Source of the DNA: an uncultured Verrucomicrobiae bacterium
GTDB taxonomy: Bacteria; Verrucomicrobiota; Verrucomicrobiia; Limisphaerales; JAFGQR01
NCBI GenBank assembly: GCA_963788655.1
Contig: CAWBHS010000039.1
Location: 1-64,000, forward strand
Length of the DNA stretch: 64,000 nucleotides
Direction: 5' to 3'
How positions within the stretch are numbered: the stretch's first letter is position 1; each line of letters opens with the position of its first letter. This document shows positions 24,483-52,575 of the stretch, piece by piece. A program made the position numbers and the translations under genes. The notes below the pieces were generated by a model, which was not told where the DNA came from, made no database searches, and saw only the letters and a list, made by a program, of their open reading frames with translations.

Positions 24483-24576
24483 TCAGCACTTGACTGTCCT
24501 CACTTGTTCCATTAGGTTCGTTCTTCATCGCTTTTTATTGGCATTTATCGAAGTATTAACCGGATTTTGTAAAACC

Positions 24577-26950: not shown

Positions 26951-27110
26951 ATGAAAGACCAATTAGTCGAACCAGCAATCAAGCCGGGCCGCAGGCCCAG
27001 CCAGCGTTCAATCCCACCGGGCTGTGGACACCGAAGCAGGCCGCCATACGGCAATTAGCAATCCCGGCAGCATCGTGCGGGCCTTTCGTCGGGCGAGCTC
27101 CGCGGCTACA
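26951..27110 (+). pseudogene. Possible excisionase-like HTH, frameshifted
   Basis: LWTPKQAA in a shifted frame; lies between integrase and primase. Confidence 0.3.
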
Positions 27111-27373
27111 AATGAATGCGTCGGCCGGACGCTTGAACCTGCCGACATGGAAGCTTGGCTCCTTGCCTCGCGCGTTGGCGGCTAGTCCAGTAAGGAGGCG
27201 TTTGATGACAGGACAAGCCCCCCCACGGCCAAGCCAACGCAGATCGCTATGCGCATCAGCTTCGCACCTGCACCCATGCTGTTGCCCGCCATCGTGTTCA
27301 ACCGCAGGCTGATTAGTTATGCTCCTGTCGTCGTTAAGCGATACATCGCCTCTGCCACAATCGCGTGAGGCGA

Positions 27374-29300
27374 ATGACCGCCCCTGAATTCGTTTCGCGG
27401 CTGGGACCAATGGCAAAGCCAAAGGCCAACGGCGCTGGTGGTTGGTTTGCTGCCGGCGCACGACGACAAAAAGCCCAGCCTCTCGGTCACCAACGGTGCT
27501 GACGGTCGCGTATTGCTGCACTGCCATGCCGTTTGTCCCGGAAGCCATCGTCGCCGCCTGCGGTTTCAAGATGTCAGACTTGTCCGCCAGGAACTGGGGG
27601 CACCGCTACGATTAACGCCGCATCATTGACACCTATGACTACGTCAACACGGACGGAACCCTGGTCTTTCGGGTTGTTCGTTACAAGCCAAAGGGTTCAG
27701 ACAACGACGCCCTGATCCCGATAAGGAAGGCGGTGGCTCTGGAACCTCAACGGCGTCGAGCGCGTTCTGTTTCGGCTGCCCGCAGTGATCAAAGCCGTTG
27801 CCGAACACGAGCCCATTTTCGTCGCCGAGGGTGAGAAGACACGACGCACTCGTCAAAGCTGGCTGCTACGCAACCTGCAACAGTGGCGGAGCCGGTAAAT
27901 GGCAGACAGCTACACAGCCACGCTAAAGGGTGCGCAGGTGGTCGTCATCCCCGACAAAGACGTGCCCGAACGGAAGCACGCCCAAGCCGTACGACCGCTC
28001 TGAACGGCACGGCAGCGGGCATCAAAGTCATCGAACTGCCCGACCTGGACAGGCGCCCTGTCGAAGACGCTTCCGACTGGCTTTCATTCGGTGGACAGAC
28101 ATCGACCTAAAAGAAATGGCCGAATCGCGCCCGATGGACAGCAGCCAGCGCGACGAGACACTCCAAACCATCGAAACCGGCAGTTTGAATAGTGCGATGG
28201 GGAATGTCGGGAGGATCGAATCCGGCACCGTAGCAGCCCAATACGTTGGACCGGAAGCGGCGACACTACAGCGAAAATCGCCGGCAGCAGCGCGACCGAT
28301 AAATTGAAACGCTGGTAGCCCGTCCGCTGTTCGCCATTCCGATGCCTTCTGCCAACAACGCGGACAAGTTGCTGCGCCACAATTACCTTTGCGAGGCGGG
28401 GAATGCTACTGGCAGCCCCGACCGGCGTAGGAAAATCGTCCTTCGTACTCAAGCGGCAATTACGTGGGCCTTGGCGAACCACTTCGGCATTGGCCCGCAT
28501 CGAACCGACGATTAAAACCTAATCCTCCAGGCCGAGAATGACGATAAAGACATACGCAAATGCGCGAAGGCATTGCAACCGCACTGCGACTCTCCGATGC
28601 TGACCGATCCGCCCTCCTTGAAAGCGTCTGGATTCATTGCGATCTGGCAAGATGGGCCCTCCGTTTTTTTCTGACGTAGCCCGCCTACTGCTGGAAAGCG
28701 TCAGCCTGACATCATTGTTGTTAACCCGGTCTTCGCTTATCTCGGTGCAAACGCATCCGACCAGAAAAAGTCTCCCAATGGCCCGCTCCTATCTCGCACC
28801 TGTTCCACGAATTGAATGCGCGGCGATACTCGTCATCACGCGAGAAAACCACTATCAGGTAGGAAACCGAACTGGCAGGCTGGGATTTCGCATACCTCGG
28901 TTCAGGATGAACGGTGGGCCAATGGCCGAGGGCGGTTCTCGCCATCAGTTCATCGGCATCCACAGCATTTTTCAGCTTCATGCTGCCGAGCGCGGTGCGC
29001 GGCTCCGCTGGCGGAATGAAGACGGTTGGCCAGTTTCGAACGAATGATGGCCCACGCCAAAAACCGGCTCTATTTTCTGGCGTGGCGCCGAGTCGGACGA
29101 AGTCACCACCGGCGGTCGATCCAAGCGTATAACGTTGGCAGTTTAGTCGAGTTGTTGCCCCAGACGGGCTCAAACCACAGAGTGGAAAACGGAGACTGAA
29201 ACGGAGTTGGGCATCGGGAAACCAAATAGTTCGAGCTTAAAAATAGCGCACAGAAGAACCGGAAGGCATTTCACTCAAAGGTCACTAAACGTGGACCGGA
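27374..29300 (+). pseudogene. Primase (Zn finger + TOPRIM) / AAA helicase, heavily frameshifted; end approximate
   Basis: Across frames: CCPAHDDKKPSLSV..LLHCHA, DTYDY..VVRY, IFVAEGEK, GGAGKW, VVVIPDKD; Walker A APTGVGKSS near 28415; LQAEND. Confidence 0.7.
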
Positions 29301-29829
29301 GTGCCGAACACCGAACCCAGATCGGAACCTGTGGACTCCCCGTGCGAACCAATTGGTCCGTTAAGTCCGGAAATTTCGAAACTCCTTTAGGAACCGGTAG
29401 GTCCGTTAAGTCCGCCGCTTTATAAGGCGGACCTAGCGGACGAACCTGTGTTGAACCATCTACTAAAAACCACCACGGACGACCGGGCTGGCTCTGCACA
29501 CCACGCGGACGCCCAGTGTTAAACTGCCATACGTTACTTCATGTAAGCAGCACGGAGCAAACGGCAAACAGTTTCACTCCAGGACAATCACTTCGAAGCC
29601 CCGCGTTTTCGCTCCTTCGCTCGGGGGCGGCGACTCCCCGGAAGCGGGATTCCCAATAGCACGCGCCACTGGTCGAATAGCCGCTGGCGCGCTGTCGATA
29701 GCTGATGCCACGCGTGGCTTGACGCCACTGCTCGAGCTGGTCGCCGGCGCGCGCAACCTGGCGTTCGAGCCCGCCCATCGAAGCTGCGCATGGATTTGTC
29801 CTGCCGTCATTTGCCGGCCAAATCGGGCA

Positions 29830-30024
29830 TTACGGCGAAGGGCCGGTCGGGGGGCCGGTGGCTCTTCGATTACGGTACTGCCAGCGTGTACGGGCCGCCG
29901 TCCATTGCCCGTCCCAACACCAGGACCGGACGGTCTGATGCGGAATACCGTGCTGGGCGGCGATTTCCGGCCGTGATCCGCGCCCTTCGACGTAATCCCG
30001 GCGGCAATCCAGCCGGACGGCCAT
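29830..30024 (-). CDS. Small HTH protein
   Basis: RDYVEGRGSRPEIAAQHGIPHQTVRSWC..GQW. Confidence 0.35.
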   Translation of the reverse strand: MAVRLDCRRDYVEGRGSRPEIAAQHGIPHQTVRSWCWDGQWTAARTRWQYRNRRATGPPTGPSP

Positions 30025-30270
30025 CGGATGGTGTCGGGTGCGTTTTGATGTAATCAGTGGCAATTTGCTCCAACAGTAACCCTTGGCCGCACAATGTCCA
30101 TGGACCGTCATTCCACACCTTGGCCGACACTTATTGGTTGACGATTCACGGCGTATTCCCTCCCCGGTCCTGCGTGGTTGACCCTGATGAATCCCTATTA
30201 ATGTCTTTGTGTCCCTGCACCGTCTTGGTACTGTCCCCGCCCTGATGGCGGCTAAAACGGGTCTTTGGCG

Positions 30271-32299
30271 ATGAATAACTTTGGCGAAAAGGTCAACTTT
30301 CTGTGGTCCATTGCGGAACTGCTCCGGGACCGCTTCAAACGAGGCAAATACGCCGATGTCATCCTGCCCTTCACCGCCCTGCGCCGGATTGATTGCGTGC
30401 TCGCGCCGACCAAGGAAAAAGTGCTGGCCACCTACGGCAAACTGAAAGGCAAACTCGAAAACCTCGATCCCCAACTGCGCAAGGCGTCCGGGTTCGCCTT
30501 CTACGACGCCAGCCAATACGACTTCGAGAAACTGCTCGATGACGCCCCCGATCTGGCCGCCAACCTCGCGGCGTACATCAATTCCTTTTCCCCGAACATG
30601 CGGGAAGTGCTGGAGAAGTTCGATTTCTACAACACCATCGCCAAACTGGACGAACCCGGCTGCTTACCTCGTCATGGAGCGGTTTGCCAGCGACACCATC
30701 GATCTCCATCCCGACGTGGTTTCCAATCGCCGAAATGGGCTACGTCTTAGAGGAACTCGTTCGCCGCTTAAATGAAGCCCTCGACGAGAACCCCGGCGAA
30801 CGCTTTACCCCTCGCGAAGTCGTCCGCCTGATGGTCCTGCTGGTCATCATGGTGGACCTGGACATACGCAAACAGGAACACATCATCCGCACGGTTTGCG
30901 ATCCCTGTTGCGGCACCGGCGGCATGGTCACCATTGCCAAGGATCAGATTCCGAAATCAATCCCCACGCCGACACCATCATGTTCGGCCAGGAATCCCAG
31001 CCCGAAACCTTCGCCCTGTGCAAAGGCGGATCTGTACATGAAATGCACCGATGGACGGGACGCCGAAAACATCAAATACGGCAGCACCATGTCCAATTGA
31101 CCAATTGCCGAGATCGTTGTTACGATTATCAATTGCCGACCCTCCCTACGGCAAGGATTGGAAGAACGAGGCGGAACACATGGAAGGCGAAGCCGCTCGC
31201 GGGTACGCGGGCCGTTTCGGGGCCGGTCTGCCTCGCATCAGCGATGGCACTGCAGTTTCTCCAGCACATGTTTCGCGGATGAAACCGGCCCGCAAGGCGG
31301 AGGGCGGATGGCGATCGTAGTGAACGGATCGCTGCTGTCACGGGCGATGCCGGGAGCGGGGAAGCGAAATCCGCCGTTGGATTCTGGAAAGCGACTGGCT
31401 CGAAGCCATCGTCGCCTTGCCCGACCAGCTCTTTACAACACCGGCATCAGCACCTATGTCTGGATCGTGACCAACCGCAAGGAGCCGCGCCGAAAGGCCA
31501 GGTCCAATTGATCGATGCATCGAAATCTGGATTCCCATGCGTAAAAGCCTGGGCAACAAGCGCCACGAAATTCCGCCGAGCAAATCCAGCAGGTCACCCA
31601 GGTCTATCTGGATTTCCAGGCCGGGAACATAGCAGGATTTCCAAACCACCGATTTCGGTTATCGCAAGGTCACCATCGAGCGCCCGCTGCGCTTGAACTT
31701 CCAATCCAGCCTGGAACGGATCGAGCGGCTCAACGAACAGAGCGCTTTCCAAAACTTGGCGATCAGCAAAAGAAGGACCCAACCAAGGCCGCTGAAGAAG
31801 CCACAGGCCGCAAGCAACAAGAAAGCATCTGGCGTATAAAAGGACGCTGCCGGGGACCGTGCCCAAGGATCGCACCGAAGTCCTGACCGTGTTTGAAAAC
31901 GCGCTCAACAAGGCGAAGCTCAAGCTGGCCGCCACACTGCGCAAAGCCGTCTTGAAGGCGCTTCGGAGAACGATGACACGGCCGAAATATGCAGGGATGG
32001 CAACGGGAATCCTGAGGCCGATACCGATTTGCGGGATAAGGAAAACGTGCCGTTGCTGGACAGAGATCCATGGGTTATTCGAAACCGGGAAGTGAAACCA
32101 CATGTGCCGGACGCCTGGGTAAATCAGACTGTCGGTGGATCCCAAAGATGGTGAGATTGGCCGGGTCGGGTACGAGATCAATTTCAATCGCTATTTTTAC
32201 ACCTACTTGCCGACCTCCGCCGCTGAAGAGATTCGAGAGGCTAATCAAGACCCTGGAAAAAGGGAAATCATGGCCATGCTCAAAGACATCACCCAATGA
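30271..32299 (+). CDS. hsdM: Type I R-M methyltransferase subunit, many frameshifts
   Basis: FLWSIAELLR, VILPFTALRRIDCVL, FTPREVV, DPCCGTGGM, PPYGKDW, YNTGISTYVW, VGYEINFNRYFY. Confidence 0.9.
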
Positions 32300-33661
32300 G
32301 CACCGGGTTGAAGCCGTATCCCAGTTACAAGGACTCCGGCGTCGAGTGGCTTGGGGACATCCCAGAGCATTGGGAAGCTGTCAGAATTAAATGGCTTGTC
32401 TCAAAAATTGGCAGCGGGAAATACCACCCAAGGGTGGAGCGCAAATATATTCTGACTCAGGGGTGTTATTCTTGTTCGTAGTCAAAACGTTCATTTCGAT
32501 GGATTGAAATTAAACGACGCTGCTCTACATTGATGATGCGATTGATGTAGAGATGAAGTCATCGAGGGTTCAACCCCGTGATGTCCTTTTGAACATCACC
32601 GGCGCATCATTGGGGGCAGATGTTGTTCAGTTCCGTGATACACAGCAAGCGAATGTAAATCAGCATGTCTGCATCATTCGTCCACTTCATCGGCGAATTG
32701 AAACGGTGTTCTTGACTGGCAGCCTTTCATCTCCGTCCGGTTCAAGCTCAAATATTCGCCGATGAAGTTGGCACATCCCGTGAAGGATTGGCATTCGACA
32801 AGGTTGCAAATTTTGTGGTCGCCCTGCCAATTGATTTGGCCGAACAAACCGCCATCGCCGATTTCCTCGACCGTGAAACAGGGAAGCTTGATGCGTTGGT
32901 GAAGAAGAAGGAGCGGTTGATCGAGTTGTTGCAGGAAAAGCGCACGGCCCTGATCAGCCACGCCGTCACCAAAGGACTCGATCCCACCGTGCCCATGAAG
33001 GATTCGGGCGTCGAGTGGCTGGGGGAAGTCCCGAGAGCACTGGGAGGTCATGCCTTTTAAGAACCTTTTCCGACTCATCTATCGATACCCTACCTACTAC
33101 AATATCAAATACGTGAATTCTGGTGTGCTCGAAATACGAGGCGAAGCTCTGACAAATGATGGTCGGATTGCCCGGCTTGATGATGAGCGCTATATCGCCA
33201 AAGAAACCAGTGCTCTTTTTCCGCGCACTGTATTGGAACTTGGTGACATTGTGATGTCGGTGCGTGGCACAATGGGCAAAATTGGGGTAGTTGAGCAAGA
33301 CTGTGTTGGCGGCAATATCACTGCTAACTTGCTCCGCTTGTCTCCGAAGCGAACTGTAACATCCGGTCATTTTTTGAGATGGCTATTATTGAGCACATAC
33401 TTCGGTCAGTCCTTGGATCGTTGTGCCCCACAGACCACAATCAAAACCGTGACTATTCCTCAACTTTCTCAAATTGGGCTTCCGGTTCCGCCTTTTGGAG
33501 AGCAGCTAACTGTCGTCGATTTTCTTGACCAAGAAACCACGAGACTCGACGCCCTCGCCGCCAAAGTCCGCACCGCCATCGAGCGGTTGCAGGAATATCG
33601 AACGGCGCTAATCTCGGCGGCAGTCACGGGGAAAATCGATGTCAGGAATCAAATCGAATGA
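32296..33661 (+). CDS. hsdS: Type I R-M specificity subunit, frameshifted
   Basis: Two KDSGVEWLG repeats, [32 protein letters not shown]-richer TRDs. Confidence 0.9.
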
Positions 33662-33705
33662 GTGATATAAAGCTATTCCAGATCAACGGTACCTAAGGGC
33701 GGTTA

Positions 33706-36700
33706 ATGGACACCACCGAAAAAAACTTCGAAGCCAGCATCGAGGAAACGTTGATCCGCGATCCGTTTGCTGACACCGGCGGTTCCGTCCAACCTTTCAA
33801 AGAACCGCCAACCAGTTCCACGTTTATTCCCGGCGGCTACCAGAAACGGAAACCGGAGGATTACGACCGTTCCCTGTGCCTGGTTCCCGGTGACGTTCTG
33901 GATTTCATTTACGCCTCCCAGCCGAAGGAATGGGACAAAATGCGCAAGCAGCATGGAGCCGACGCCAAGAACCTGCTGCTTCATCGCTTGGCCTCCGAAA
34001 TCAAAAAGCGGGGCACCCTCGAAGTGCTGCGCAAAGGGATCAAAGCCAATGGGTGCAAATTCCGGTTGGCCTATTTCCGTCCGGCCAGTGGGTTGAATGA
34101 ATCCTTGCAAAAGCTGTATCGGGCCAATGTCTTTTCCATCGTCCGCCAACTCAAATACAGCCAGCAGAACAGCAACAGTCTGGATCTGGTCCTCTTCCTA
34201 AACGGGCTGCCCATCTTCACCGCCGAGCTGAAGAATCCGCTCAACGGCCAGAACGTGGAAACGCCATCCGGCAATACCGGCGAGACCGTGATCCCGAGAG
34301 CCGCTCCTCGGCCATCGCCGCTGCCTGGCTCACTTCGCCGTCGATCCGAATCTCGTGTACGTCACGACTCTCGGGGCACCAAGACGCGCTTCCTCCCATT
34401 CAACCATGGCAACGGCCGGCGGCGGGGAATCCCCCAGCCTGGCGCGGTTTCGCCACGGCCTACCTCTGGGAGCAGGTCTGGGCTCGGGACAGCGTGCTCA
34501 ACCTCATCCAACACTTCATTCACGAGACCCAGGACGAAGACGAGCAGGGCCGGCGGTGGGGCCAAAACGTTTGATCTTTCCGCGCTATCACCAGCTCGAT
34601 GCGGTGCGGCGACTGGTCGCGGATGCCCGCGAGACGGGACCCGGGCATTGGTACCTCATCGAGCACAGCGCCGGGAGTGGCAAGAGCAACTCCATCGCCT
34701 GGCTCGCCCATCAGCTGTCGAGCCTTCACAGCGAACAATCAGCGCGTCTTCGATTCGATCATCGTGGTGACTGATCGACGGGTGCTGGATCGCCAGCTGC
34801 AGAACACGATCCGCCAGTTCGAGCAGACGCTGGGAGTCGTCGAGAACATCGACAAGAACTCGAAGCAGCTGAAGACACGCGCTGGAAGAGGGCAAGAACA
34901 TCGTCGTCACCACCCTGCAGAAGTTCCCGGTGATCGTCAGCGAGATCGGCACGCTCCCAGGCACTCGTTTTGCCGTCATCATCGACGAGGCCCACTCGTC
35001 ACAGTCCGGAGAAGGCTCGAAGCATCTCAAGGAAGTGCTGAGCGCGTCCAGTTGGATGAGGCCGAGCAGGAGGAGGCTGGGGACGAGGAAGACTACGAGG
35101 ACCGCATCGCCGCCGAGATGGCGCATCGGGGCCGGCTCCCCAACCTGAGCTTCTTCGCCTTCACCGCCACCCCCAAGCCCAAGACCCTGGAACTGTTTGG
35201 CACGCGGCAGCCCGACGGTTCGTTTGTGCCATTCAGCCTCTACTCGATGCGCCAGGCCATCGAGGAGGGTTTCATCCTCGACGTGCTGGAGAACTACACG
35301 ACCTTCAAGACCTACTTCAACCTACTGAAGCGGATCGAAGACGACCCGAGTTACGACCGCGACAAGGCCATCTACCTGCTCCGTTCTTTTGTCGACCTCC
35401 ACGAACATGCCATCAAAAGAAGGTCGAGATCATGATCGACCATTTCACGGAGAAGTCGATGTCGCGCATCAACGGCAGAGCCAAGGCCATGATCGTGACA
35501 CGATCCCGCCTCCACGCGGTGCGCTACAAGCTGGCCGTTGACCGGTATCTACGCGAGAAAGGATACGCCTTCAAGGTGCTGGTCGCGTTCTCCGGAACGG
35601 TGCGGGACGGCGGCATTCGACTACACCGAGTCGAACATGAACGGCTTTCCCGAGACACAGACGGCGGAGACCTTCAAGCGGGACGAGAATCGCATCCTGA
35701 TCGTGGCCAACAAGTTCCAGACCGGCTTTGATCAGCCCTTGCTCCACACCATGTACGTGGACAAGAAGCTGGGCGGAGTCAACGCCGTGCAGACACTGTG
35801 CCGACTGAACCGCGTGCATCCTGACAAAGACCGAGACGATGGTGCTGGATTTTGCCAACGAAGCCGAGGACATCCAGCAGGCGTTCCAGCCCTATTACGA
35901 GCGACCCTGTTGAAAGAAGCCACCGACCCCAACCTGCTTCACGATCTGCAAAATCGCCTCGAACGCTTTCACCTGTTCACCGAAGCCGAAGTCGAACGGT
36001 TCGCCCAAATCTATTTCGCCCCCAAATCCACGCAGGACAAATTGTATGCCGCCCTGGCTCCCATCAAGGACCGCTACGGGGCTTTGGAACCGGACGAACG
36101 ATCCGAGTTCCGGGGTTGCCTGGATGATTATGTCCGGCTGTATGCCTTCCTGTCGCAGGTCGTGCCCTTCGTGGATACCGAACTGGAAAAACTCTACGTG
36201 TTCACCAAGCTGTTATGGCGCATCTTGCCGCCGCCGGACCGTGGACGTTTACCCGTGCAGGTCCAGGAACAAATTGATCTGGATTCGCTGCGAGTATCAA
36301 AAACGGGAGGCGGCAAAATCAAATTGGAACGGGGCACAGAAGAACTCGATCCGATGAAGCCCAAGAGTGGCAGTGGGTCCATGGCCGCGGAGATCGAACC
36401 ACTGTCCCAAATCATCGAAGAACTGAACGAACGTTTTGGAACCAACTTCACCGAGCAGGATCGAGTTTTTATCGAGCAACTGGAAGAACGCATTGCCAAC
36501 GATTCATCCTTGGAAGCCAGCATCCGCGTCAATCCCCCCGAAGACGCCCGCCTGACCTTCGATCATGTCATCAACGACCGCCTGCAAGAAATGATCGATT
36601 CCAACTTCAAATTCTACAAGCAAGTCACCGACGACACCGATTTCGCCAATTTCTTTGTGGGCTGGCTATTCAAACGCTACTACGAGAAGAAGAAGCTGGG

Positions 36701-36716
36701 CGAAGACCGGAAATAG
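33706..36716 (+). CDS. hsdR: Type I R-M restriction subunit, frameshifted
   Basis: DLVLFLNGLPIFTAELKN, HSAGSGKSNSI, IDEAHSSQ, FTATPK, KFQTGFDQP. Confidence 0.92.
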
Positions 36717-36742
36717 AATCCGTGCAGATGCATCGGATAGTC

Positions 36743-36804
36743 TGCCCTTACCGCTAATACTGGCTCCGCTTCGCTCCGCAGCAATACACCCTTTATTGTT
36801 GGGC
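36743..36804 (-). repeat. Degenerate short attC site
   Basis: Minus strand GCCCAAC...GCGGAGCGAAGCGGAGC...GTAAGGGC. Confidence 0.45.
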
Positions 36805-37110
36805 ACCCATCTCGTCGTTGGATGCCGATCTTATTACGTCATACGGAAGCAAGAGCGTGTCTATGGCAATGGAAATGGGGAAATCAATTATCCCGACTAA
36901 ACAAGCACCCGCCTTCTTCCCAGCCGACCCTTCAAAGGAGCTACGGAAGGGCGCTGTCATAAGGCTGCCGTCAACGTACGTAGCGGCATATACGGGTGGA
37001 AAGTCATCGCTGGCCTGACTGCGCCACGCTGGAACCCTTGTGGAAATGGTCCCGCATCCTACGCAGAGGAAGTAGGCGACGACGGGAGCGAGAGCGCGGA
37101 AAACAGTCAT
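36793..37110 (-). CDS. Cassette: YceK/YidQ-like lipoprotein
   Basis: GCGTISTR, VYAAT, IDFPISIAIDTLLLPYD. Confidence 0.8.
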   Translation of the reverse strand: MTVFRALAPVVAYFLCVGCGTISTRVPAWRSQASDDFPPVYAATYVDGSLMTAPFRSSFEGSAGKKAGACLVGIIDFPISIAIDTLLLPYDVIRSASNDEMGAQQ

Positions 37111-41202: not shown

Positions 41203-41373
41203 GGTGGGGCGCGGCTCTGTCGAGCCTCGAGTTTTCCAAATTATGTCTGCCCCGCGAAGCGATCAAAAGATAATTCCTGACATTCGCATCGCCGAAGGCT
41301 TCCCTGCGGTTGCGGTTTCGGGTATTCGATGACCATGCGGAAAAGTTAGGGCGCGACGGAGTCTCGCCCTACC
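41203..41373. repeat. REP/MITE-like inverted pair, family A
   Basis: GGTGGGGCGCGGCTCTGTCGAGCC ... GGGCGCGACGGAGTCTCGCCCTACC. Confidence 0.7.
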
Positions 41374-41432
41374 GGGTGGCGCCCTGGGAAAATGAATTTG
41401 CCATACCCTGCTCGGTTCCGTAGGTTCCCGCG

Positions 41433-41529
41433 GTGCTGGGACACGCGAAAAGACTGCCGACAACGTTTTAGCGTCCGAGGAAATACCGCGGACGCCAACG
41501 CCTCAGACTCGCGGGTCCGAGGCGTTTTT
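41433..41529 (+). promoter_or_regulatory. Candidate thrS attenuator (leader peptide, two hairpins, terminator)
   Basis: GTG-start MLGHAKRLPTTF* 41433-41471; hairpin 41471-41495; terminator ~41497-41529 with T run. Confidence 0.45.
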
Positions 41530-41631
41530 GTTTCCTGGCATAGTCCTGCCGTCGCACTCTCAGGCGAGCAAGAAAGCGTGAAGCTCATGGGCAGGTTTCG
41601 GCAGATGCGCCCACTGTTGATTGGACAATTT

Positions 41632-43697
41632 ATGGAAACTGGAAAATCTGAAACCGAACGCAAGACCCTCGACGAGCGCCAGAAGATGACCGAACTGGAG
41701 CGCATCCGCCACTCGTGCGCCCACGTCATGGCCACCGCCATCCTGCGCCTGTGGCCCGATGCCCAGTTCGCCTCCGGCCCGCCGGTCGAGAACGGCTTCT
41801 ACTACGACGTCGAACTCGAACACCGCATCTCGCCCGAGGACTTTCCCGGCGATCGAGGCGGAGATGAAGAAGGAGATCAAGGCGAACCACGTCTTCGAGA
41901 GAAAGGTCGTCACGCGCGAACAGGCGATCAAGGACTCGGAGAGCGGCCGGCTGGGCGGCACTGACCGAACGGCCGGGCAACCCAGCAAGTTCAAGCTGGG
42001 TAACCTCGAAGCAAATCCCCGAGGGCGAGCCGATTTCCTACTACAAGAACGGCGACTTCATTGACCTGTGCGCCGGGCCGCACGTGATGCGCACCGGCAA
42101 CATCGGCGCCTTCAAGCTCACCAGCGTGGCCAGCGCCTACTACAAGGGCGACGAGAAGAACCCGCAGCTCCAGCGCATCTACGGCACGGCGTTCAAGAAC
42201 AAGACCGAGCTCGAGGAATACTTCAAGATGCTCGAGGAGGCCAAGCGCCGCGACCATCGCAAGATCGGCGCGGAGATGGGGCTGTTCGCGATTGACACCG
42301 AATACGTCGGGCCGGGCATGCCGCTGTGGCTGCCCAAGGGCACGGTGCTCGTCGAGGAACTGGAGAAGCTGGCCAAGGAAACCGAATTCGCCGCCGGCTA
42401 CGTCCGCGTCCGCACGCCGCATCTGGCCAAGGAGAAAATGTATAGAACCTCCGGCCATCTGCCGTATTACGCGGAGTCCATGTTTCCGCCGATGGAGCTG
42501 GCCTTGGACGAACAGAAGCTCGCACGAAAAACCGAGTTGCAAACGTCGAAAGCCTTGGAACTAGAAGACGGTCGAATTGGATGACTGACATCCAAGACTC
42601 GAGGACAAGAACAGGCTGAGTTGGCATCATCGAGAAGAAGATGCAGAAGAGTTGGGCGAAGAGAATTTCGCGACGAGAGATTGCTCGAGAAATCAGCTTG
42701 GCCAGTCGAAGGCGTCTCGCGACGCGGGACCGCTATTACCTCAAAGCCATGAACTGCCCGCATCATCACCGCATTTTTGCGGCGGAGCCGCAGCAGTTAT
42801 CGCGACCTGCCGTTGCGCCTCGCGGAATACGGCACTTGCTATCGCTACGAGCAGAGCGGCGAGTTGTTCGGCCTCATGCGCGTGCGTTCGCTCAACATGA
42901 ACGACGCCCACATCTATTGCACCGAGGAGCAGTTCGCCGCCGAGTTCAACGCCGTGAACGAGATGTATCTGAAGTATTTCAAGATCTTCGGCATCGAGAA
43001 ATACGTCGATGCGCTTCAGCACGCACGTCGCCCGAAGGGCTGGGCAAGAAATACGTCAACGAACCCGAGCTGTGGAAGAAGACCGAGGACATGGTCCGCC
43101 AGGTGTTGATCGATTCGAAGATCAACTACGTCGAGGTGCCGAACGAGGCGGCGTTCTACGGTCCGAAGATTGACGTGCAGGTCTGGAGCGTCATCGGCCG
43201 CGAATTCACCCTGGCCACCAACCAGGTGGACTTCGCCGTGCCCGCCAAGTTCGGCCTGACCTACCGCGACAAGGACAACACGAACAAGACGCCGCTGTGC
43301 ATCCATCGCGCGCCGCTCGGCACGCACGAGCGGTTCATCGGCTTCCTCATCGAGCATTACGCCGGGCAACTTCCCGCTCTGGCTCGCGCCGGATCAGGTC
43401 CGCGTCATCACCCTCAACGACGACGAAGCGCTGATTGAACTACGCCAAGCCCATCGTGAACGAACTCCGCGCCAACATGGTCCGCGTGGAAGCCGATTTC
43501 AGCGCCGACCCGATCAAGGCGAAGATCGCCAACGCCGAACAATTGCGCGTCCACACCATGCTGGTCATCGGCGGTCGCGACATGGAAGCCGGCGACGTCA
43601 GCGTCCGCCTCCACGGCAAGGCGGCCCGCAAGGCGCGAAGCCGAAGGCGGAGGTCGTGGCGGATATTCTGGCGAGCATCAAAGAGCGGAGGGCGTAA
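41632..43697 (+). CDS. thrS: Threonyl-tRNA synthetase, frameshifted
   Basis: [72 protein letters not shown]. Confidence 0.95.
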
Positions 43698-43866: not shown

Positions 43867-45006
43867 CTAAAGCTCCCTCACACAACGGAACCCAAAGAAG
43901 CTGAAGGTATCGCCCGGGTTGACGTTGTCGCGATAGGCACACCCCGCATAGTAGGCGGCGGCGTTCCACCCGCCACCGCGCATCACACGGCCGCCCGATC
44001 CGGGCCCTGCTCCTGTTGGATTATTTGTGGTGGGCTGGCCATACGGCGTTCCATACCAATCCCAACACCACTCCCACACATTCCCCGCCATGTCGTAAAG
44101 GCCATAACCATTCGGCGCAAAAGACCCCACCGGACTCGTCGCCGGACTCGTTCCCCCGACACTCCCAATAGCGTTATAGCCGTTGGGACCCAAGTCATAG
44201 CTGTAACCGAAGGTCGCTCCAAAGTAATTGGCCTGACTTTCCGAAATGCTGTTGCCCCACGGAAACCGTAGCCCGCTCAACCCGCCCCGCGCCGCCTTCT
44301 CCCACTCCGCTTCCGTCGGCAACCGATACCCGTTTGCTGCCAAATTCTGATAGACTGTCGTTCCCTCGTCCCCATTCGTGAACACCTGCGTAAGTCCCGC
44401 ATCCGTGTAATACACCGGCGGCAACCCCGCCTGCTGTGACCGAGCATTGCACCACTTCGCACAATCAAACCAGTCCACCGTCTGCACCGGATGATTCGCT
44501 GCCTTGCCCGCACCCGCATGCACAAAATCGTAGCCATGGCTCGTGGCATACGCATACACATTCGTCCATTCGCTCCACGTCACCTCGGTCTGGTCCATGT
44601 AAAATGCCGACACATACACATTCGTCGGATTCGCATCGGTTATTTCAGAATCATTTGTAGCGGTGTTATAGAAAAGGTAGTTGCCCATGGTGAACGAACC
44701 CGCCGGTATCAGCACCATGCCCGCCGTCGTATCGGTCGAGGCTAGCAACCGGAAATAACCCGCCGGGGAGGAGTTCGTCACCGTCGCGGCATTGACCGTG
44801 ACCGCATTGCTCGCCGTCACCCAGTTGGGCGCAGCGAGATTGGTGGTCGTCTGCAACACGTAATTCGTCGTGCTCACCGGCCAGTAAAGAATGGATTGCC
44901 CGCCCGGTGCCGGGGCGATGCCCAGATTCGTTACTTGCGCGTTGATCAGTTGAACGCCAGCAATGAGCGCCAGCCCGATGAACAGGGATTGTAGTTTGGT
45001 TTTCAT
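43867..45006 (-). CDS. Secreted FGE-sulfatase/SUMF1 (CLec-fold) protein
   Basis: Signal peptide; MVLIPAGSFTMG, GYRLPTEAEWEKAARGG, NGYGLYDMAGNVWEWCWD, RVMRGGGW, GFRCV. Confidence 0.9.
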   Translation of the reverse strand: MKTKLQSLFIGLALIAGVQLINAQVTNLGIAPAPGGQSILYWPVSTTNYVLQTTTNLAAPNWVTASNAVTVNAATVTNSSPAGYFRLLASTDTTAGMVLIPAGSFTMGNYLFYNTATNDSEITDANPTNVYVSAFYMDQTEVTWSEWTNVYAYATSHGYDFVHAGAGKAANHPVQTVDWFDCAKWCNARSQQAGLPPVYYTDAGLTQVFTNGDEGTTVYQNLAANGYRLPTEAEWEKAARGGLSGLRFPWGNSISESQANYFGATFGYSYDLGPNGYNAIGSVGGTSPATSPVGSFAPNGYGLYDMAGNVWEWCWDWYGTPYGQPTTNNPTGAGPGSGGRVMRGGGWNAAAYYAGCAYRDNVNPGDTFSFFGFRCVREL

Positions 45007-45126: not shown

Positions 45127-45442
45127 CTGGCTCGCGCCGGATCAGGTGCGCGTCATCACGCTCAACGACGACGAAGCATTGATCGACTACGCCAAGCCCA
45201 TTGTGAATGAACTGCGCGCCAACATGGTGCGCGTGGACACGGATTTCAGCGCGACGCCGTTCAAGGCGAAGATTGCCAACGCGGAACAACTGCGCGTCCA
45301 CACGATGATGGTCATCGGCGGTCGCGACATGGAAGCCGGCGCGGTGAGCGTGCTTCTCCACCACGTCGGATCGCAAGACGCGAAACCGAAGGCGGAAGTC
45401 GTGGCGGATATTTTGGCAACGATTCGGGAACGGCGAAATTAA
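45127..45442 (+). pseudogene. thrS: Duplicated 3' end of thrS (anticodon-binding domain)
   Basis: Diverged direct repeat of 43379-43697 starting at [10 protein letters not shown]. Confidence 0.9.
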
Positions 45443-45756
45443 TTGCAGAGAATTCAGCATGGCGGCAGTAATCAAACCCGGGGACGGCAAGACTCCGTCG
45501 AGCCCTGACTTCCTGGAAGCGCTTGGGTGAAGCGTTAGTCCCAGGAAGAAACCGCCAGCCTGAAGATCGGATTCAGTTACACTTTTTGCTTGCATTAGCG
45601 AGAGCCGAAGTTTAGGCGTACCCCCATCGTAACCGGATGTTGCCGTTGGATGAACGCCCGCGCTTGCTTCGGCGTCACCCCGGCCCAGATGGTTGAAAAA
45701 CGAAACGACGTGTTCTAGGAAATCTGCACTGAGCAAAGTGTGACGAAAGGAATAGC

Positions 45757-46137
45757 GTGAAGAACCGATTGGGAATGGATTCTCCAGGGCTGGCGAAGAT
45801 CTTAAGCGCTATGGCGGCATCAGCGATGGAAGTGCAAGCCCGTTTCGACCAAACGCATTTGCAGGAACTGGAAGAATTTGCGCAGTTCGCCGCCACCGTC
45901 CCCACCGACACCCTGCCCTTGGTGCTACCCCTGGCTCCGGCGCGCCAGCGCGTGGACACGTTCCGTCTCGCGTGGGCAATGGAATTGTCCATCGAGCGCC
46001 GCCATGGTTTCGCCATTACCGTTCGTCTAATCAACCTCGGCTACGAGGCGCGTTTTGGGGTGCGACAAAGCAAAGCAGCGCGGATTGAATTGCAGGTGGA
46101 GCAAGTGCCGGTGGCGGCGGCACAGTTGAAAAGTTGA
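45757..46137 (+). CDS. Hypothetical protein, helix + beta-hairpin (DUF2589/Trypco-like)
   Basis: AAAGGA RBS; LAKILSAMAASAMEVQARFD..RIELQVEQVP. Confidence 0.65.
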   Translation: MKNRLGMDSPGLAKILSAMAASAMEVQARFDQTHLQELEEFAQFAATVPTDTLPLVLPLAPARQRVDTFRLAWAMELSIERRHGFAITVRLINLGYEARFGVRQSKAARIELQVEQVPVAAAQLKS

Positions 46138-46204
46138 AGGAGTGCGGCGGTCGTTTGAATGAACATCGTGGAAGAGAAATGACACTGAACGGAAGGAACT
46201 AACC

Positions 46205-46837
46205 ATGCCAGTCAAACCAAGCAAGTTGATCAATGACCTGAATTATGTGCCGAACATTGTGGGCGCACTGGGATTAAGCATCGCCGCCGCGCAGAAGGCG
46301 TTCAACCTCGACTATTTGCAGAATGTCGAGCGGCTGATTGCCCTCGCCCGATCGATTTTTGGTGAAAAAATCCTCGACGACCAGGGCAAGCCCAAAGACA
46401 TGACCGACGCGCAGAAGGCAAAGCTCGAACAATTCGCGTCGTTCTTGAAGGAACTGCTCGTGGCCACGGCGCCGCCGCGTTACCAGTTCACCGAAACCAC
46501 TCTCAACGTGAAACTGGACCTGGCGCAATCGATGGACCTGAACGTAGGCGCGGGCCTGGGCGTCGGATTTGGTGCCGTGACCGTGAGCGCTTCACTGGCC
46601 ATCGGTTACGGATACGACTATCGGGCGGCCGCGGAGTGTCACACAGTCATCCACGCCATTCCGGCGGACCCCAATGTGTTTCGTCCGCTGCTGGACCGAG
46701 CCAAAGAAGTGAATGACAAAATGCTCGCGCTTTCAGATCCCGCCGGCATCGATAACCGCATCATTGAGCAAAGCCGCGCCATTTTCGAGCAGGTCATGGG
46801 CGTAAAGGCGCCCACGCCGGTCGAGGCGCCGAAATAG
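46205..46837 (+). CDS. Hypothetical protein, DUF2589/Trypco-like
   Basis: GGAAGGA RBS; LGLSIAAAQKAFN, PPRYQFTET, Gly-rich hairpin, VIHAIP. Confidence 0.8.
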   Translation: MPVKPSKLINDLNYVPNIVGALGLSIAAAQKAFNLDYLQNVERLIALARSIFGEKILDDQGKPKDMTDAQKAKLEQFASFLKELLVATAPPRYQFTETTLNVKLDLAQSMDLNVGAGLGVGFGAVTVSASLAIGYGYDYRAAAECHTVIHAIPADPNVFRPLLDRAKEVNDKMLALSDPAGIDNRIIEQSRAIFEQVMGVKAPTPVEAPK

Positions 46838-46877
46838 TCCGAGAGACTGCGAGGCTCGCAACGGCAGCGGCTAGTCC

Positions 46878-46945
46878 GGGGCGCGGACATTCTTGTCCGC
46901 CTTGGAGAACTGGGCGCAGCAGGCGGACAAGAATGTCCGCGCTCC
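46878..46945. repeat. REP inverted pair
   Basis: GCGCGGACATTCTTGTCCGC ... GCGGACAAGAATGTCCGCGCTCC. Confidence 0.85.
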
Positions 46946-47044
46946 AATGCGAGTGTTTGGGAATTGTTCTGCGGCAGTAATTGGCTGACAGCAAAGCTGC
47001 CGACAAGCTCGGAATGGGAAAGAACTCGCTAACGAATAAATATC

Positions 47045-47971
47045 ATGCCGCTTAAGAAAATAGATGTCGTCAATGCCGCCAGCGATTTGCGTGACCGCGC
47101 CAAGCAGTTGAGCGACGCGGCAGACGCGCTGTGGGACAAGGCCCGGAAACAAAGTGGCACGGAGATTCCGGATAACGTACTGGGCGATGAACGCAACGAA
47201 GTACTCATCGAACACGGCACGCTTGAAACCGATTGGGTGGCGCTGGCCCAGGCGCTCAATGTGTCGCTCGAAGGCACGAGCACGGATTTTGCCGAGTTCC
47301 TCACCACCACCGGTGCGGCGCTCGTGGCCACCCAACGGCAATTGGACACCCAGTCCAAAGCGTACCTGGACAGCCTGGCGGGCAGTCCGCACGTGCTGCC
47401 GTCCGTTTTTCGCATTCCCAAATTGTCGGGCGAAATGAAGTTTGCCCTGGAGCGTGTGGCCGGGCAAAAGCTGAACCTGGTCTTCTACGGGAAGGAGGAA
47501 AAGAACACCGCGCTCAACCAGCAGTCGATGTCATTCGAGATCGTTTCGGCGCCGCCCCCGCCGGAATTCATGCAGAAGTTGCTGACGGTGGCACCGCGGC
47601 TCGAACTGGTCCTGGCGCTGCCGGAACGGGAACGGATCATGGCGGTGGTGCAGGCCTCCGATCTCGAACCGAAACTACTACCCCAAGCGGATATGCTCGA
47701 GCATCCGGACGAAGTCTTGATCACTCCCGCGGTGGTGCCCGGTGAGGAACGGGCGTCGAAATACTTTCTGCTGTACGCCAACGAAACCCAGGAAGAGCTC
47801 ATCGGCGCGTGGCACGTCGATGTGGCGGCGGCCGAAATCGTGACGGTATATCGCTACGACTTGAAGCCGGGGTCCAAGGAAACGATCAAGCCGTTCAAAG
47901 ACTTCACGCTGGCGTTGGCCAAATTCCAGGCGGCTTACCTGAGACAATTGCGGCCACCGGGCAATGCCTGA
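47045..47971 (+). CDS. Hypothetical protein with DUF2589/Trypco-like core
   Basis: GAALVATQRQLD, PSVFRIPKLSGEMKF, SFEIVSAPPPPE. Confidence 0.8.
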   Translation: MPLKKIDVVNAASDLRDRAKQLSDAADALWDKARKQSGTEIPDNVLGDERNEVLIEHGTLETDWVALAQALNVSLEGTSTDFAEFLTTTGAALVATQRQLDTQSKAYLDSLAGSPHVLPSVFRIPKLSGEMKFALERVAGQKLNLVFYGKEEKNTALNQQSMSFEIVSAPPPPEFMQKLLTVAPRLELVLALPERERIMAVVQASDLEPKLLPQADMLEHPDEVLITPAVVPGEERASKYFLLYANETQEELIGAWHVDVAAAEIVTVYRYDLKPGSKETIKPFKDFTLALAKFQAAYLRQLRPPGNA

Positions 47972-49292
47972 GGAAGCCGTCAAAGATTTGCGACATCTGC
48001 CCGCAGACGTGGCGGACACCGCGGCAACCTTGCCCCGAGCCGGCGATCAACTGGTTCGCCTTTCCGCCGAGCAACTGGTTGATAATCCGTTGGGCTGGCG
48101 TCAGTGGCTGGTATTGCGACAGGTGGAATTGCGCTGGCGCTTCTACGTGGCGAAGACGGGCAAGCGGGTGGTGTTCTTTTTCTTTCGCAAGCAATCACCG
48201 GTCGAAGTGGTGATGGATGCTCACCTGGAGTTTCGGGTCGCCCCGTCGCCGCTCATTCCGCGACAGGTGCCGCTGGTGCCGCGCGAGATGCTGTGCCAAT
48301 TAGTCTGGCCGCGCCTGCTGGCGAAACGGTCCGTTGGGACCACCGACCGCGTGACCTTTCAACTCGATCAAGCCGGCAACGAAACACTGGACGCGATCCA
48401 TCCGGAGACAGGCCCGGACGAGGCCGAGCTAAGGTACTTGCGCGGACCCACGGAAATCCCGACCCGAGGTGCTGATGGCCAATGGCGCGTCGCACCGTTT
48501 ATCGCTTTCATCGAGGCGGTGCGCGCATGGATTGGCACGGGCTTGCAGCAGGGGCGGGAGGAAATTCTCACCGTGCCCTTGCCCAATGATCCGCTGGTGG
48601 CGCGCCGGATACTCTACTATGGGCTGGTGTCGTTCTGCGCCGCGGCCAACGCCACGAGCGACCTCACCACCCGGCCGACGATGCCCCCGCTGTTCGAAGA
48701 ATTGCAGTCGCCTTACGACATCACCGGCTTCCGGGCGGGAGTCGTATTGCGGTTGAAAGCGGACGGCACCGAGATCGCCGCGCTGGATGATGATCATCCC
48801 GTGCAACTGATGATGGAGTTGGAGGTGCAACGGACACCGGCGGCGGGCGCCCGCGCCAAGGTGTGGCTGGGACCGCCGGATTTTCTACTGACCGGGCCAC
48901 TGCACCAAGCGTTCTTCGATGAGTTTCTGGATGGTTTGCCCCTGTTCGCCAACTCGCCCGTTGCGATGGCCGCAATGCTGGCGCTGCGGACATTCGTGCT
49001 GCAAAACGCGAACCGGATTTCCATTTTCCGCGTCAAACGCGATGGGCGGCGAGATACCAACGCATTGGTGGTGACAGGAATGTGGGAAGGCGAGCGCATC
49101 GCCGTGGTGCTGAAAGGCGTCTTTGAAGTGGATACCGCAACCACGCCGCCGCAGGTCCAACGCCGGGGCAACATCCGCTTGCTGCAAACCGGGCCGGTGG
49201 AACCACAGGATGCCATTCTGGACGAAGACGTGGTCCGGCATTTCTTCCATTTGATGGCGGCGTTGAAATCCTGGGGAGGCGTGTTGCCATGA
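47964..49292 (+). CDS. Hypothetical protein (442 aa)
   Basis: Overlaps the upstream stop; long ORF. Confidence 0.75.
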   Translation: MPEEAVKDLRHLPADVADTAATLPRAGDQLVRLSAEQLVDNPLGWRQWLVLRQVELRWRFYVAKTGKRVVFFFFRKQSPVEVVMDAHLEFRVAPSPLIPRQVPLVPREMLCQLVWPRLLAKRSVGTTDRVTFQLDQAGNETLDAIHPETGPDEAELRYLRGPTEIPTRGADGQWRVAPFIAFIEAVRAWIGTGLQQGREEILTVPLPNDPLVARRILYYGLVSFCAAANATSDLTTRPTMPPLFEELQSPYDITGFRAGVVLRLKADGTEIAALDDDHPVQLMMELEVQRTPAAGARAKVWLGPPDFLLTGPLHQAFFDEFLDGLPLFANSPVAMAAMLALRTFVLQNANRISIFRVKRDGRRDTNALVVTGMWEGERIAVVLKGVFEVDTATTPPQVQRRGNIRLLQTGPVEPQDAILDEDVVRHFFHLMAALKSWGGVLP

Positions 49293-49642
49293 CACCGCGA
49301 GGCATCGGACGTTGGATTCGCCTGCGAGTGCGGCGCGCGTGGCAGGGCCTTCTTCGGAGCCGCGGGATCACCTTGGATTTGCGGAAACGCGGCGGCAGCC
49401 GCACGGCCATCGCATTGGCGTCGGGCTGTGTTGGCGAAATCATTTCCACGCCGGCCCGAAGGCAGTTCGCGGTGTTGCCGGAGGTCGAGCCAATGTTGAG
49501 GGAGGCGGGGGCGCGATTCCGGCAGGGCCAATTGTTTTCCGCCTTGATCGAGCCCGTGCAAGCCGGGGTCAACATCCGCGCCCGCGTCAAGGAACAGGGT
49601 GCGCAGGCCGCGCAGCACTTGATTCTGCTTGGTGGCAACTGA
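49289..49642 (+). CDS. Hypothetical basic protein
   Basis: ATGA coupling with the upstream gene. Confidence 0.55.
   Translation: MTPRGIGRWIRLRVRRAWQGLLRSRGITLDLRKRGGSRTAIALASGCVGEIISTPARRQFAVLPEVEPMLREAGARFRQGQLFSALIEPVQAGVNIRARVKEQGAQAAQHLILLGGN

Positions 49643-49726: not shown

Positions 49727-52575
<2,849 letters not shown>

Follow-up and report, generated by a model that had tools for sequence, protein, structure and literature searches.

The question raised by this locus is what a run of five co-oriented genes of no recognisable family contributes to the cell in which it is found. Regulated pores that kill the cell, among them gasdermins, Pepco, and EACC1, increasingly turn out to be a frequent endpoint of bacterial immunity, and to our knowledge the regulated killing pores known so far are single proteins activated by proteases. 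The present cassette points to another arrangement, in which a candidate pore subunit (g2) is usually accompanied by three soluble paralogues and by no enzyme, and such a composition suggests another mechanism of pore latency. We regard the cassette as probably an undescribed multi-subunit device that pierces the membrane of its own cell. More specifically, we put a probability of about one half on a regulated complex that perforates membranes, in which g2 is the pore subunit and g1, g3, and g4 are its soluble partners.

Organization and conservation of the cassette

The original prediction placed five genes, the last three of them translationally coupled, between a thrS duplicate and leuS, and the open reading frames in the window (the whole 64-kb stretch of DNA analysed) are found exactly there (Table 1), with all of the motifs quoted at the time present in their translations. 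The g3 and g4 frames overlap by 8 nt and those of g4 and g5 by 4 nt (ATGA), so the coupling of the last three genes is upheld. The sequence AAGGA sits 8 nt 5′ of the GTG start of g1, GGGGAGG lies 9 nt upstream of g5, and the cassette as a whole spans ~3.9 kb.

Table 1. Coordinates of the cassette, its flanking genes, and its internal features
Feature	Position	Strand	Length or residues	Description
thrS 3′ fragment	45146-45442			Left flank; HGTP_anticodon, 7.9e-12
g1	45757-46137	+	126 aa	ORF, GTG start
g2	46205-46837	+	210 aa	ORF
g2 hairpin tip	46538..46615	+	residues 112-137	Uncharged, amphipathic, VGAGLGVGFGAVTVSASLAIGYGY
REP-like double palindrome	46878..46945			Inside the 207-nt g2-g3 spacer
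g3	47045-47971	+	308 aa	ORF
g4	47964-49292	+	442 aa	ORF
g4 module 1			H12-40 with E54-94	Helix plus curved sheet
g4 module 2			H212-236 with E251-303	Helix plus curved sheet
g4 module 3			H312-347 with E352-411	Helix plus curved sheet
g5	49289-49642	+	117 aa	ORF
leuS	from 49727	−		Right flank

The cassette family is missing from Pfam, NCBIfam, PADLOC, and PHROGs, in which none of g1 to g5 found a match with E < 0.04, and neither family nor fold searches assigned the proteins to a known pathway or structure. A Kyte-Doolittle scan found neither a signal peptide nor a transmembrane helix in any of the five, the highest 19-residue mean being 1.60, inside the g2 beta-hairpin, and the other four proteins reaching at most 1.43. 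The earlier description of proteins without a recognisable enzyme motif or signal peptide is thereby confirmed.

The arrangement is strongly conserved elsewhere. Of the loci with enough flanking sequence, 34 of 41 from genomes and 17 of 19 from metagenomes contain g1, g3, and g4 together with g2, in the order g1-g2-g3-g4(-g5). Where there is room for it, g1 lies upstream of g2 in 38 of 46 loci from genomes and 41 of 42 from metagenomes; g3 follows g2 in 39 of 46 and 29 of 30, respectively. Database records place the cassette in at least seven phyla (Verrucomicrobiota, Planctomycetota, Acidobacteriota, Bacteroidota, Myxococcota, Thermodesulfobacteriota, and Pseudomonadota). Most of its neighbours are housekeeping genes, and no gene is conserved beside it across the loci.

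That no protease or NTPase partner is visible, as the original prediction remarked, is correct for the cassette in this 64-kb window, beside which no protease was found, but a protease does adjoin a minority of the related loci. A lone g2 (L018) directly follows a gene for a caspase-domain protein (Peptidase_C14), a full cassette (L033) also comes after such a gene, and another lone g2 (L008) directly follows one for a 1601-aa CHAT + nSTAND1 (6e-87) + WD40 protein. Further protease neighbours occur in L010, judged by layout, and in L097, where a trypsin lies two genes downstream. The lone g2 copies nest within the cassette-type g2 clade (SH-aLRT 87-93 in a quick tree). The suggestion of a conflict system draws support from these relatives with CHAT-nSTAND1-WD40 or caspase neighbours.

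A module shared by g1 to g4

All five proteins had been taken for apparent paralogues, which is supported for g1 to g4 and fails for g5. The paralogy is invisible to pairwise BLASTP among g1 to g5 (best pair g1-g2, E = 0.053). Profile-profile comparison of family alignments with hhalign (31 sequences for g1, 33 for g3, and 18 for g5) connects g1 with g2 (93.8%, E = 1.8e-7, 117 columns), g1 with g3 (95.8%, E = 8e-9), and residues 10-160 of g4 with residues 80-258 of g3 (90.7%, E = 1.2e-6). The direct profile pairs g3-g2 and g4-g1 reach 1.4%, and g1 forms the bridge that joins g2 to g3. These comparisons support the view that one helix-plus-sheet module underlies g1 to g4, its distant copies being linked chainwise, while g5 has nothing in common with the other four and is not a paralogue.

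The layout of g1, a small soluble paralogue, consists of a helix with xQxxxD, Pro-Arg, a polar beta-hairpin, and a closing strand ending in Pro. In g3, the N-terminus is a variable helix region, the shared module occupies approximately residues 77-178 (FRIPK ... FEIVSAPPP), and the C-terminal alpha/beta domain is shared with g4. The AlphaFold model of g4 (pLDDT 84.8) contains three tandem helix-plus-curved-sheet modules (Table 1) and a small beta domain, and together with the profile comparisons it indicates a common module across g1 to g4. It also bears out the idea that g4 holds additional diverged copies, as the strands quoted for them close modules 1 and 2 (E81-94 and E280-291).

g2 as a candidate pore subunit

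The conserved core protein of the cassette, and its candidate pore subunit, is g2, for which 272 homologues were found (48-61% identity among the 120 listed) and a representative search returned 191 clusters among 1.84 billion representatives. Its AlphaFold2 model (pLDDT 75.5) comprises two helices, a 60-residue beta-hairpin (30+30), two further helices, and a tail. The hairpin tip interleaves hydrophobic residues with Gly, Ser, Thr, or Ala and has Tyr/Phe at positions 135 and 137, and an alignment of 40 sequences contains 26 consecutive columns with <10% charged residues, whereas such runs extend over at most 5 columns in g1 and at most 7 in g3. Pro makes up 21% of the C-terminal tail (median 11.5 aa) and 4.6% of the protein as a whole, and 26% of the tail residues are charged. 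The protein also carries a conserved (I/L)(F/L)EKxxG motif.

In beta-pore-forming toxins, each protomer contributes an amphipathic transmembrane beta-hairpin with aromatic residues at its base, and the g2 hairpin, which is likewise amphipathic, free of charge, alternating, and aromatic at the base, appears to resemble this pattern. Structure comparison of the g2 model gave weak neighbours throughout (E 0.05 or worse), and every one of them is a protomer of an oligomeric beta-barrel, from either the FliF collar or a pore (CDTb, iota Ib, anthrax PA, lysenin, and beta-toxin). The caspase-like protease link of some g2 relatives recalls bacterial gasdermins. The differences are that no significant fold or sequence match was obtained for g2, and that both its synthesis and, presumably, its action take place within the producer cell.

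Comparison with DUF2589 and Pepco

The likeness to DUF2589 (PF11655) that had been proposed is sustained as a lead and not as membership. The layouts agree: a helix with a conserved A-Q at the N-terminus precedes a strand that opens with Pro, a long hairpin comes next, and the closing strand leads into Pro. DUF2589 proteins, like those of the cassette, are encoded as adjacent diverged paralogues (two to three copies in eight of nine Pseudomonadota genomes with the family and one in the ninth), the counterpart in the cassette being g1, with its polar hairpin, next to g2, with its charge-free one. In the ESM Atlas, 29 of 30 hits for g2 fall in the DUF2589 set (scores 0.97, 0.92, and 0.91, with 236 of 256 features shared by the first hit), while g3 reaches only 0.77. 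Against small, low-diversity DUF2589 alignments, g1 matches the B-type profile (n = 9) at 54.8% (E = 1.2e-4) over 111 collinear columns from end to end, g3 matches it at 9.2%, and the A-type yields 0.5-3.3% with g2 and 0.1-0.3% with g1. The Pfam DUF2589 model (gathering score 23 bits) has no match in g1 to g5 or the whole genome at E up to 1, in 40 g2 relatives at E up to 10, or in the 37 scanned, mostly weaker, of the 150 representative-search matches listed, and membership is therefore not supported. Instead of a pair, the cassette comprises g5 and four proteins paralogous to one another, and it showed neither a zinc-ribbon nor a small membrane partner. DUF2589, the nearest named family, is mentioned once each in two papers brought up by a full-text search.

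The accompanying comparison with the Trypco/Pepco domains found no backing in Pfam, where the Trypco/Pepco models PF19493 and PF19631 are unmatched in g1 to g5 and give only E = 0.27 and 0.35 in the whole genome, on other contigs. Pepco itself is described as a protease-activated, pre-assembled beta-barrel pore, an SDS-resistant 9-10-mer that is activated by cleavage of a C-terminal tail (10.1101/2025.11.14.688446). By that account, g2 is similar in being a small, non-enzymatic protein whose N-terminal helix and beta strands are followed by a short C-terminal tail rich in Pro and charged residues, and some of its relatives likewise adjoin protease-STAND or caspase genes. It differs in that g2 has 210 aa against 117 aa for Pepco and that most cassettes have no protease but three soluble paralogues and g5. 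Membership in either the DUF2589 or the Pepco family is unproven.

Proposed function and alternative explanations

We propose that the cassette, which would have spread horizontally as one unit, builds a membrane-perforating complex made in the cytoplasm and working in the manner of Pepco or DUF2589 pairs. The executing subunit would be g2, several copies of which would align their 60-residue hairpins to form an oligomeric beta-barrel, with the uncharged, alternating hairpin tips inserting into the cytoplasmic membrane. Most likely, g1, g3, and module 1 of g4 would dock edgewise onto g2 or cap it, and the soluble paralogues could hold g2 as an inactive pre-pore or set its stoichiometry, with g5 as a small basic accessory. 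The outcome would be a loss of membrane integrity, leading to cell suicide upon infection or stress, or the passage of signal-less cell-wall hydrolases. Of the two assemblies originally envisaged, a ring or barrel is the one that we infer for the putatively co-assembling subunits; the filament finds no support. A fuller version is offered tentatively, as something possible rather than expected: an autonomous intracellular pore machine of four diverged paralogues and a small basic protein, in which g2 forms the barrel and the soluble paralogues serve as sensor, latch, or chaperone in place of a protease or NTPase, making the cassette a new DUF2589/Pepco-like branch for suicide on infection or for hydrolase release.

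The hydrolases themselves lead to a neighbouring explanation, rather unlikely in our judgement, in which the same device substitutes for a holin and opens the cytoplasmic membrane to signal-less muramidases, for programmed lysis or lysis-dependent release and not for antiviral suicide. A peptidoglycan hydrolase or binding gene directly adjoins g1 in L006 (GH19), L040 (phage lysozyme + PG_binding_1), L086 (PG_binding_1 + GH46), and L124 (PG_binding_1) and lies nearby in L088 (GH108 + PG_binding_3). None of the five wall-related proteins checked (all but that of L007) has an N-terminal export signal, their domains beginning at about residue 11 or a hydrophobic N-terminus being absent. A Caulobacter variant in which the g2 module is fused to an OmpA peptidoglycan-binding domain is consistent with the same reading, and both this variant and the wall-related neighbours count in favour of the main proposal as well. 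The recurrent link to signal-less muramidases bears on how such enzymes may cross the membrane without a classical holin, and it recalls phage holin-endolysin cassettes and type 10 secretion (PMC9527704, PMC10847048). Holins are small proteins with transmembrane helices, a feature that g1 to g5 do not have. However, such genes make up just 6 of 187 scanned flanking ORFs (L006, L007, L040, L086, L088, and L124), an enrichment that is a matter of judgement, and none of the scanned flanking ORFs in this window is among them. In addition, unlike phage holin-endolysin cassettes, the cassette has no relatives that we found on viral contigs, and the caspase, CHAT, and STAND links suggest a role in sensing and defence.

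Two further explanations dispense with lysis of the producer. The tandem NTF2/VirB8/cystatin-like modules might form a soluble or membrane-peripheral hetero-oligomeric scaffold, a ring or assembly factor for an envelope or storage structure in which the g2 hairpin merely oligomerises. The helix-plus-curved-sheet modules of the g4 model, with weak structural neighbours in VirB8-like OrfG, TraM, VirB8, and cystatins, are in line with this, as are the mostly housekeeping neighbourhood and the weak matches to the g2 model, the best of which include proteins of the FliF ring collar and of phage collars; we nevertheless hold such a scaffold to be improbable. An exported multi-component pore-forming toxin acting on other cells, comparable to bipartite and tripartite toxins, would account for paralogous subunits in one operon, one of them with a membrane-type hairpin, but it is very improbable given five proteins without signal peptide or transmembrane segment, no recurring secretion-system gene nearby, and hosts that database records assign to free-living soil, water, and sediment lineages.

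The g2-g3 spacer and g5

The palindrome in the g2-g3 spacer has 25-nt arms that are 96% complementary (RNA fold z-score −5.55) and yields 78 genomic matches at ≤2 mismatches versus 0 for a reversed control. It is a genome-wide repeat and no conserved part of the cassette, and the g2-g3 gap is short in most related loci. The last gene, g5, encodes a small, basic, fast-evolving protein with W..LLR near the N-terminus and RFxxGxLF ... HL near the C-terminus. An ORF of ~100-150 aa occupies its position in many loci, and a weak g5 profile finds it in 18 of 40 loci from genomes and 6 of 16 from metagenomes.

Paralogous organization of the cassette

Five genes of the + strand, referred to here as g1 to g5, occupy the positions at which the original prediction had placed five co-oriented reading frames, as confirmed by their ORF coordinates, and all of the motifs that it quoted are found in the sequences. 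An 8-nt overlap joins g3 to g4 and an ATGA overlap joins g4 to g5, while purine-rich stretches lie 8-9 nt ahead of the starts of g1, g2, and g5. The cassette is flanked on its 5' side by a 98-aa copy of the anticodon-binding end of thrS and on its 3' side by leuS on the opposite strand, and it is judged intact because the lengths of g1-g5 agree with those of relatives. Database searches and a Kyte-Doolittle scan agree with the original view that no recognizable enzyme motif or signal peptide is present: no match with E below 0.04 was obtained for g1-g5 in Pfam, PADLOC, NCBIfam, or PHROGs, and no signal peptide or transmembrane helix was found in any of the five. Within the g2-g3 spacer, two palindromes lie together (core GCGGACA-AGAA-TGTCCGC); they belong to a REP-like repeat that matches 78 times in the genome when up to 2 mismatches are allowed (reversed control, 0), mostly as inverted pairs with ~40 nt between them.

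Features of the cassette and its surroundings, in window coordinates
Feature	Position	Strand	Length
Phage-type integrase	24490-25968
Candidate degraded mobile or defense island	24490-37000
HsdS	33050-33661
HsdR fragments	33706-36716
34-nt inverted repeat, left arm	41343-41376		34 nt
thrS	~41400-43650
thrS 3'-end direct repeat, first copy	43379-43672
FGE-sulfatase-domain protein gene	43867-45006	-
thrS 3'-end direct repeat, second copy	45127-45417
34-nt inverted repeat, right arm	45478-45511		34 nt
g1	45757-46137	+	126 aa
g2	46205-46837	+	210 aa
Double palindrome	46878-46945
g3	47045-47971	+	308 aa
g4	47964-49292	+	442 aa
g5	49289-49642	+	117 aa
leuS	49727-52575	-

Pairwise BLASTP among g1-g5 gave no paralogy signal (best E 0.053). 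Profile-profile comparison of the family alignments linked g1 to g2 (93.8%, E 1.8e-7, 117 columns), g1 to g3 (95.8%, E 8e-9), and residues 10-160 of g4 to residues 80-258 of g3 (90.7%, E 1.2e-6), with the direct pairs g2-g3 and g1-g4 at 1.4%, and an iterated HMM seeded with g1 recruited the g2 family first and the g3 family next. By these profile comparisons, g1, g2, g3, and g4 are confidently predicted to be paralogues linked as a chain. In the shared module, a helix with a conserved Gln precedes a strand that opens with Pro; a hairpin comes next, and Pro follows the closing strand. This matches exactly the common layout first described.

Distribution and conservation

A total of 272 g2 homologues (the 120 listed have 48-61% identity) were retrieved, all without a Pfam domain, and an exhaustive profile search gave 191 g2 clusters among 1.84 billion representatives; the family is therefore rare but widespread. 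When 185,579 species, represented by a single genome each, were scanned with the g2 alignment, 49 loci were obtained, assigned by record title to Verrucomicrobiota, Planctomycetota, Acidobacteriota, Bacteroidota, Myxococcota, Thermodesulfobacteriota, and Pseudomonadota; a metagenome scan added 57 loci, and a viral-contig scan gave 0. Synteny elsewhere, which the operon reading anticipated, was looked for across genomes and metagenomes, and the gene order and strand of the cassette are repeated in both, with the order kept in at least seven phyla. Counting used profiles from the family alignments and was restricted to loci with enough flanking contig: g1 lies upstream of g2 in 38/46 genome and 41/42 metagenome loci, g3 lies downstream in 39/46 and 29/30, g4 is present in 36/42 and 19/21, and all three accompany g2 in 34/41 and 17/19. 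The fast-evolving g5, for which the profile is weak, was detected in 18/40 and 6/16; in many loci, the end of g4 is abutted by an ORF of ~100-150 aa, and 18 of these ORFs have W..LLR and RFxxGxLF...HL motifs in common. Every other neighboring gene cluster recurs in at most 6 loci. A word-index search with g4 retrieved only g4 itself, which was absent from 40 related genomes, including one of the same genus.

The g2 hairpin and relationship to known families

The g2 model (pLDDT 75.5) comprises two helices, a two-strand hairpin with strands of ~30 residues each (92-121 and 124-152), and a second pair of helices. In an alignment of 40 homologues, charged residues stay below 10% in each of 26 successive columns, residues 112-137, in which Val, Leu, Ile, Phe, and Tyr strictly alternate with Gly, Ser, Thr, Ala, and Asn, with Tyr/Phe at 135 and 137; equivalent uncharged stretches cover only 5 columns in g1 and 7 in g3. 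As read from sequence, residues 112-137 have the chemistry of a membrane-spanning beta-hairpin. A variable C-terminal tail begins after the conserved (I/L)(F/L)EK(L/M/V)xG and has a median of 11.5 residues, 21% Pro (whole protein, 4.6%), and 26% charged residues.

The comparison with DUF2589 in the original prediction is supported as a likeness but not as membership. ESM Atlas puts g2 among DUF2589 clusters (0.97, 29/30 hits), and the alignment of g1 with B-type DUF2589 extends over its full length (54.8%, E 1.2e-4). Other cassette-DUF2589 profile pairs are weak, and the DUF2589 Pfam model matched nothing in g1-g5, 0/40 g2 relatives, 0/37 of those scanned among the 150 representative hits listed, and nothing in this genome; the cassette is therefore filed as a probable distant branch of DUF2589 rather than a member. 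DUF2589 itself occurs as 2-3 adjacent diverged copies in 8/9 Pseudomonadota genomes with the family (301 searched) and, in the phylum of the window, in 7 genomes of one genus among 301, with two copies each. A full-text search for DUF2589 turned up two papers, each naming it once, and no description of the cassette was found in the literature, although supplements of the Pepco preprint may list relatives.

According to that preprint, the 117-aa Pepco, which has an amphipathic helix at its N-terminus, pre-assembles as a 9-10-mer beta-barrel and becomes toxic upon protease removal of a tail with 40% charged residues and 20% Pro (10.1101/2025.11.14.688446); Trypco1/2 were defined as trypsin-linked genes of conflict systems (PMC7159879). 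By analogy, the cassette may work like Pepco (Trypco1/2). The Trypco models, to whose domains the original prediction had likened the layout, gave no match to the cassette proteins.

Genomic neighbors of related loci

Flanking ORFs were scanned against Pfam (130 from genome loci and 57 from metagenome loci, after removal of near-duplicates among the loci and of certain ORFs that were long or truncated) and proved to be mostly ordinary metabolic genes. No protease/sensor, cell-wall, or mobile/conflict neighbor lies beside the cassette in the window. The lack of a protease partner remarked on in the original prediction applies to this cassette, and a minority of related loci do have such a partner. 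In a Myxococcales MAG (locus L008), a lone g2, that is, a homologue outside a full cassette, lies 65 nt after a 1601-aa protein with CHAT, nSTAND1 (6e-87), and WD40 and is also preceded by a Laminin_G_3 protein (L008:2128-7645); L010, in a second Myxococcales MAG, is alike in gene sizes and order, a likeness of layout, as the Pfam scan covered L008. The lone g2 of L018 sits between an upstream Peptidase_C14 protein and a downstream ATP-grasp gene, the full cassette of L033 lies behind a co-oriented gene for a Peptidase_C14 protein, and in L097 the second gene downstream encodes a trypsin. Lone g2 copies are nested in cassette-type g2 of Myxococcota in a quick tree (SH-aLRT 87-93), and L008 and a full cassette (L035) lie on one contig, 33 kb apart; g2 can therefore leave the cassette and become coupled to a protease-STAND sensor. 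In two loci (L014:7004-8898, L018:6995-8833), lone g2 is succeeded within ~50 nt by a gene for an ATP-grasp protein (D-Ala-D-Ala ligase-like, 375-381 aa), which may modify g2.

Cell-wall genes lie directly beside g1 in four loci, encoding GH19 (L006), phage lysozyme with PG_binding_1 (L040), PG_binding_1 with GH46 (L086), and PG_binding_1 (L124), and further neighbors carry GH108 with PG_binding_3 (L088) and Extensin-like_C (L007); no export signal was found in the five checked, namely all but that of L007. A distant Caulobacter variant (L050:6968-10674, L051, L052) has a ~600-aa protein in which a g2-like module is fused to a peptidoglycan-binding OmpA domain (3.5e-14); behind it come three small paralogues, 156-265 aa in length. 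Mobile or conflict neighbors comprise an integrase directly upstream (L103), a serine recombinase (L085), a methylase-Mrr protein with a deaminase (L097), and SLATT_2 (L049). In L039:9939-13115 and L125:10118-13102, g4 was not detected; behind g1-g2-g3 lie, in the same orientation, an ORF without assignment and a gene whose ~1000-aa product has a DNA/RNA non-specific endonuclease domain.

Proposed mechanism

The most economical reading of the cassette is a regulated membrane-perforating complex, in which g2 would supply the barrel, g1, g3, and g4, as soluble copies of its module, would join or cap g2, and g5 would be accessory; these subunits would oligomerize and co-assemble, inserting into the membrane upon a trigger. 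Of this picture, the five genes, the conservation of the cassette, the module in common, and the chemistry of the hairpin are established. A purely structural ring is less likely, and an exported toxin is also a less likely account of five proteins free of signal peptides. For the membrane-perforating complex, suicide on infection fits the protease and STAND links, and a holin-like role, helping signal-less wall hydrolases out, fits as well; the two roles are mutually compatible.

The original interpretation of a paralogous operon forming a pore, polymer, or conflict system is partly supported: the shared module and conserved synteny agree with it, and the DUF2589 and Trypco models found no match. 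The cassette is a conserved, undescribed multi-paralogue unit that probably forms a pore, and it would add a variant to the beta-hairpin death-effector theme. What chiefly sets it apart is that three soluble paralogues replace the enzyme partner.

Surroundings in the window

The last ~290 nt of thrS are duplicated as direct repeats (86-92% identity) that bracket the gene for a secreted FGE-sulfatase-domain protein (PF03781 1.5e-54) and resemble a scar left by an insertion or a duplication at the 3' end of thrS. The two arms of the 34-nt inverted repeat, which are 82% complementary, enclose thrS together with the FGE-sulfatase gene and the thrS fragment. Both thrS and leuS are split over several reading frames, with the five cassette genes intact, which points to assembly indel errors or real pseudogenes; the assembly has 115 contigs and is 86% complete with 5.6% contamination. 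An integrase gene and the pieces of a broken type I restriction system, HsdS and HsdR among them, lie 8-21 kb upstream of the cassette, and this region, in which several ORFs without family match follow the integrase, is likely a degraded mobile or defense island.
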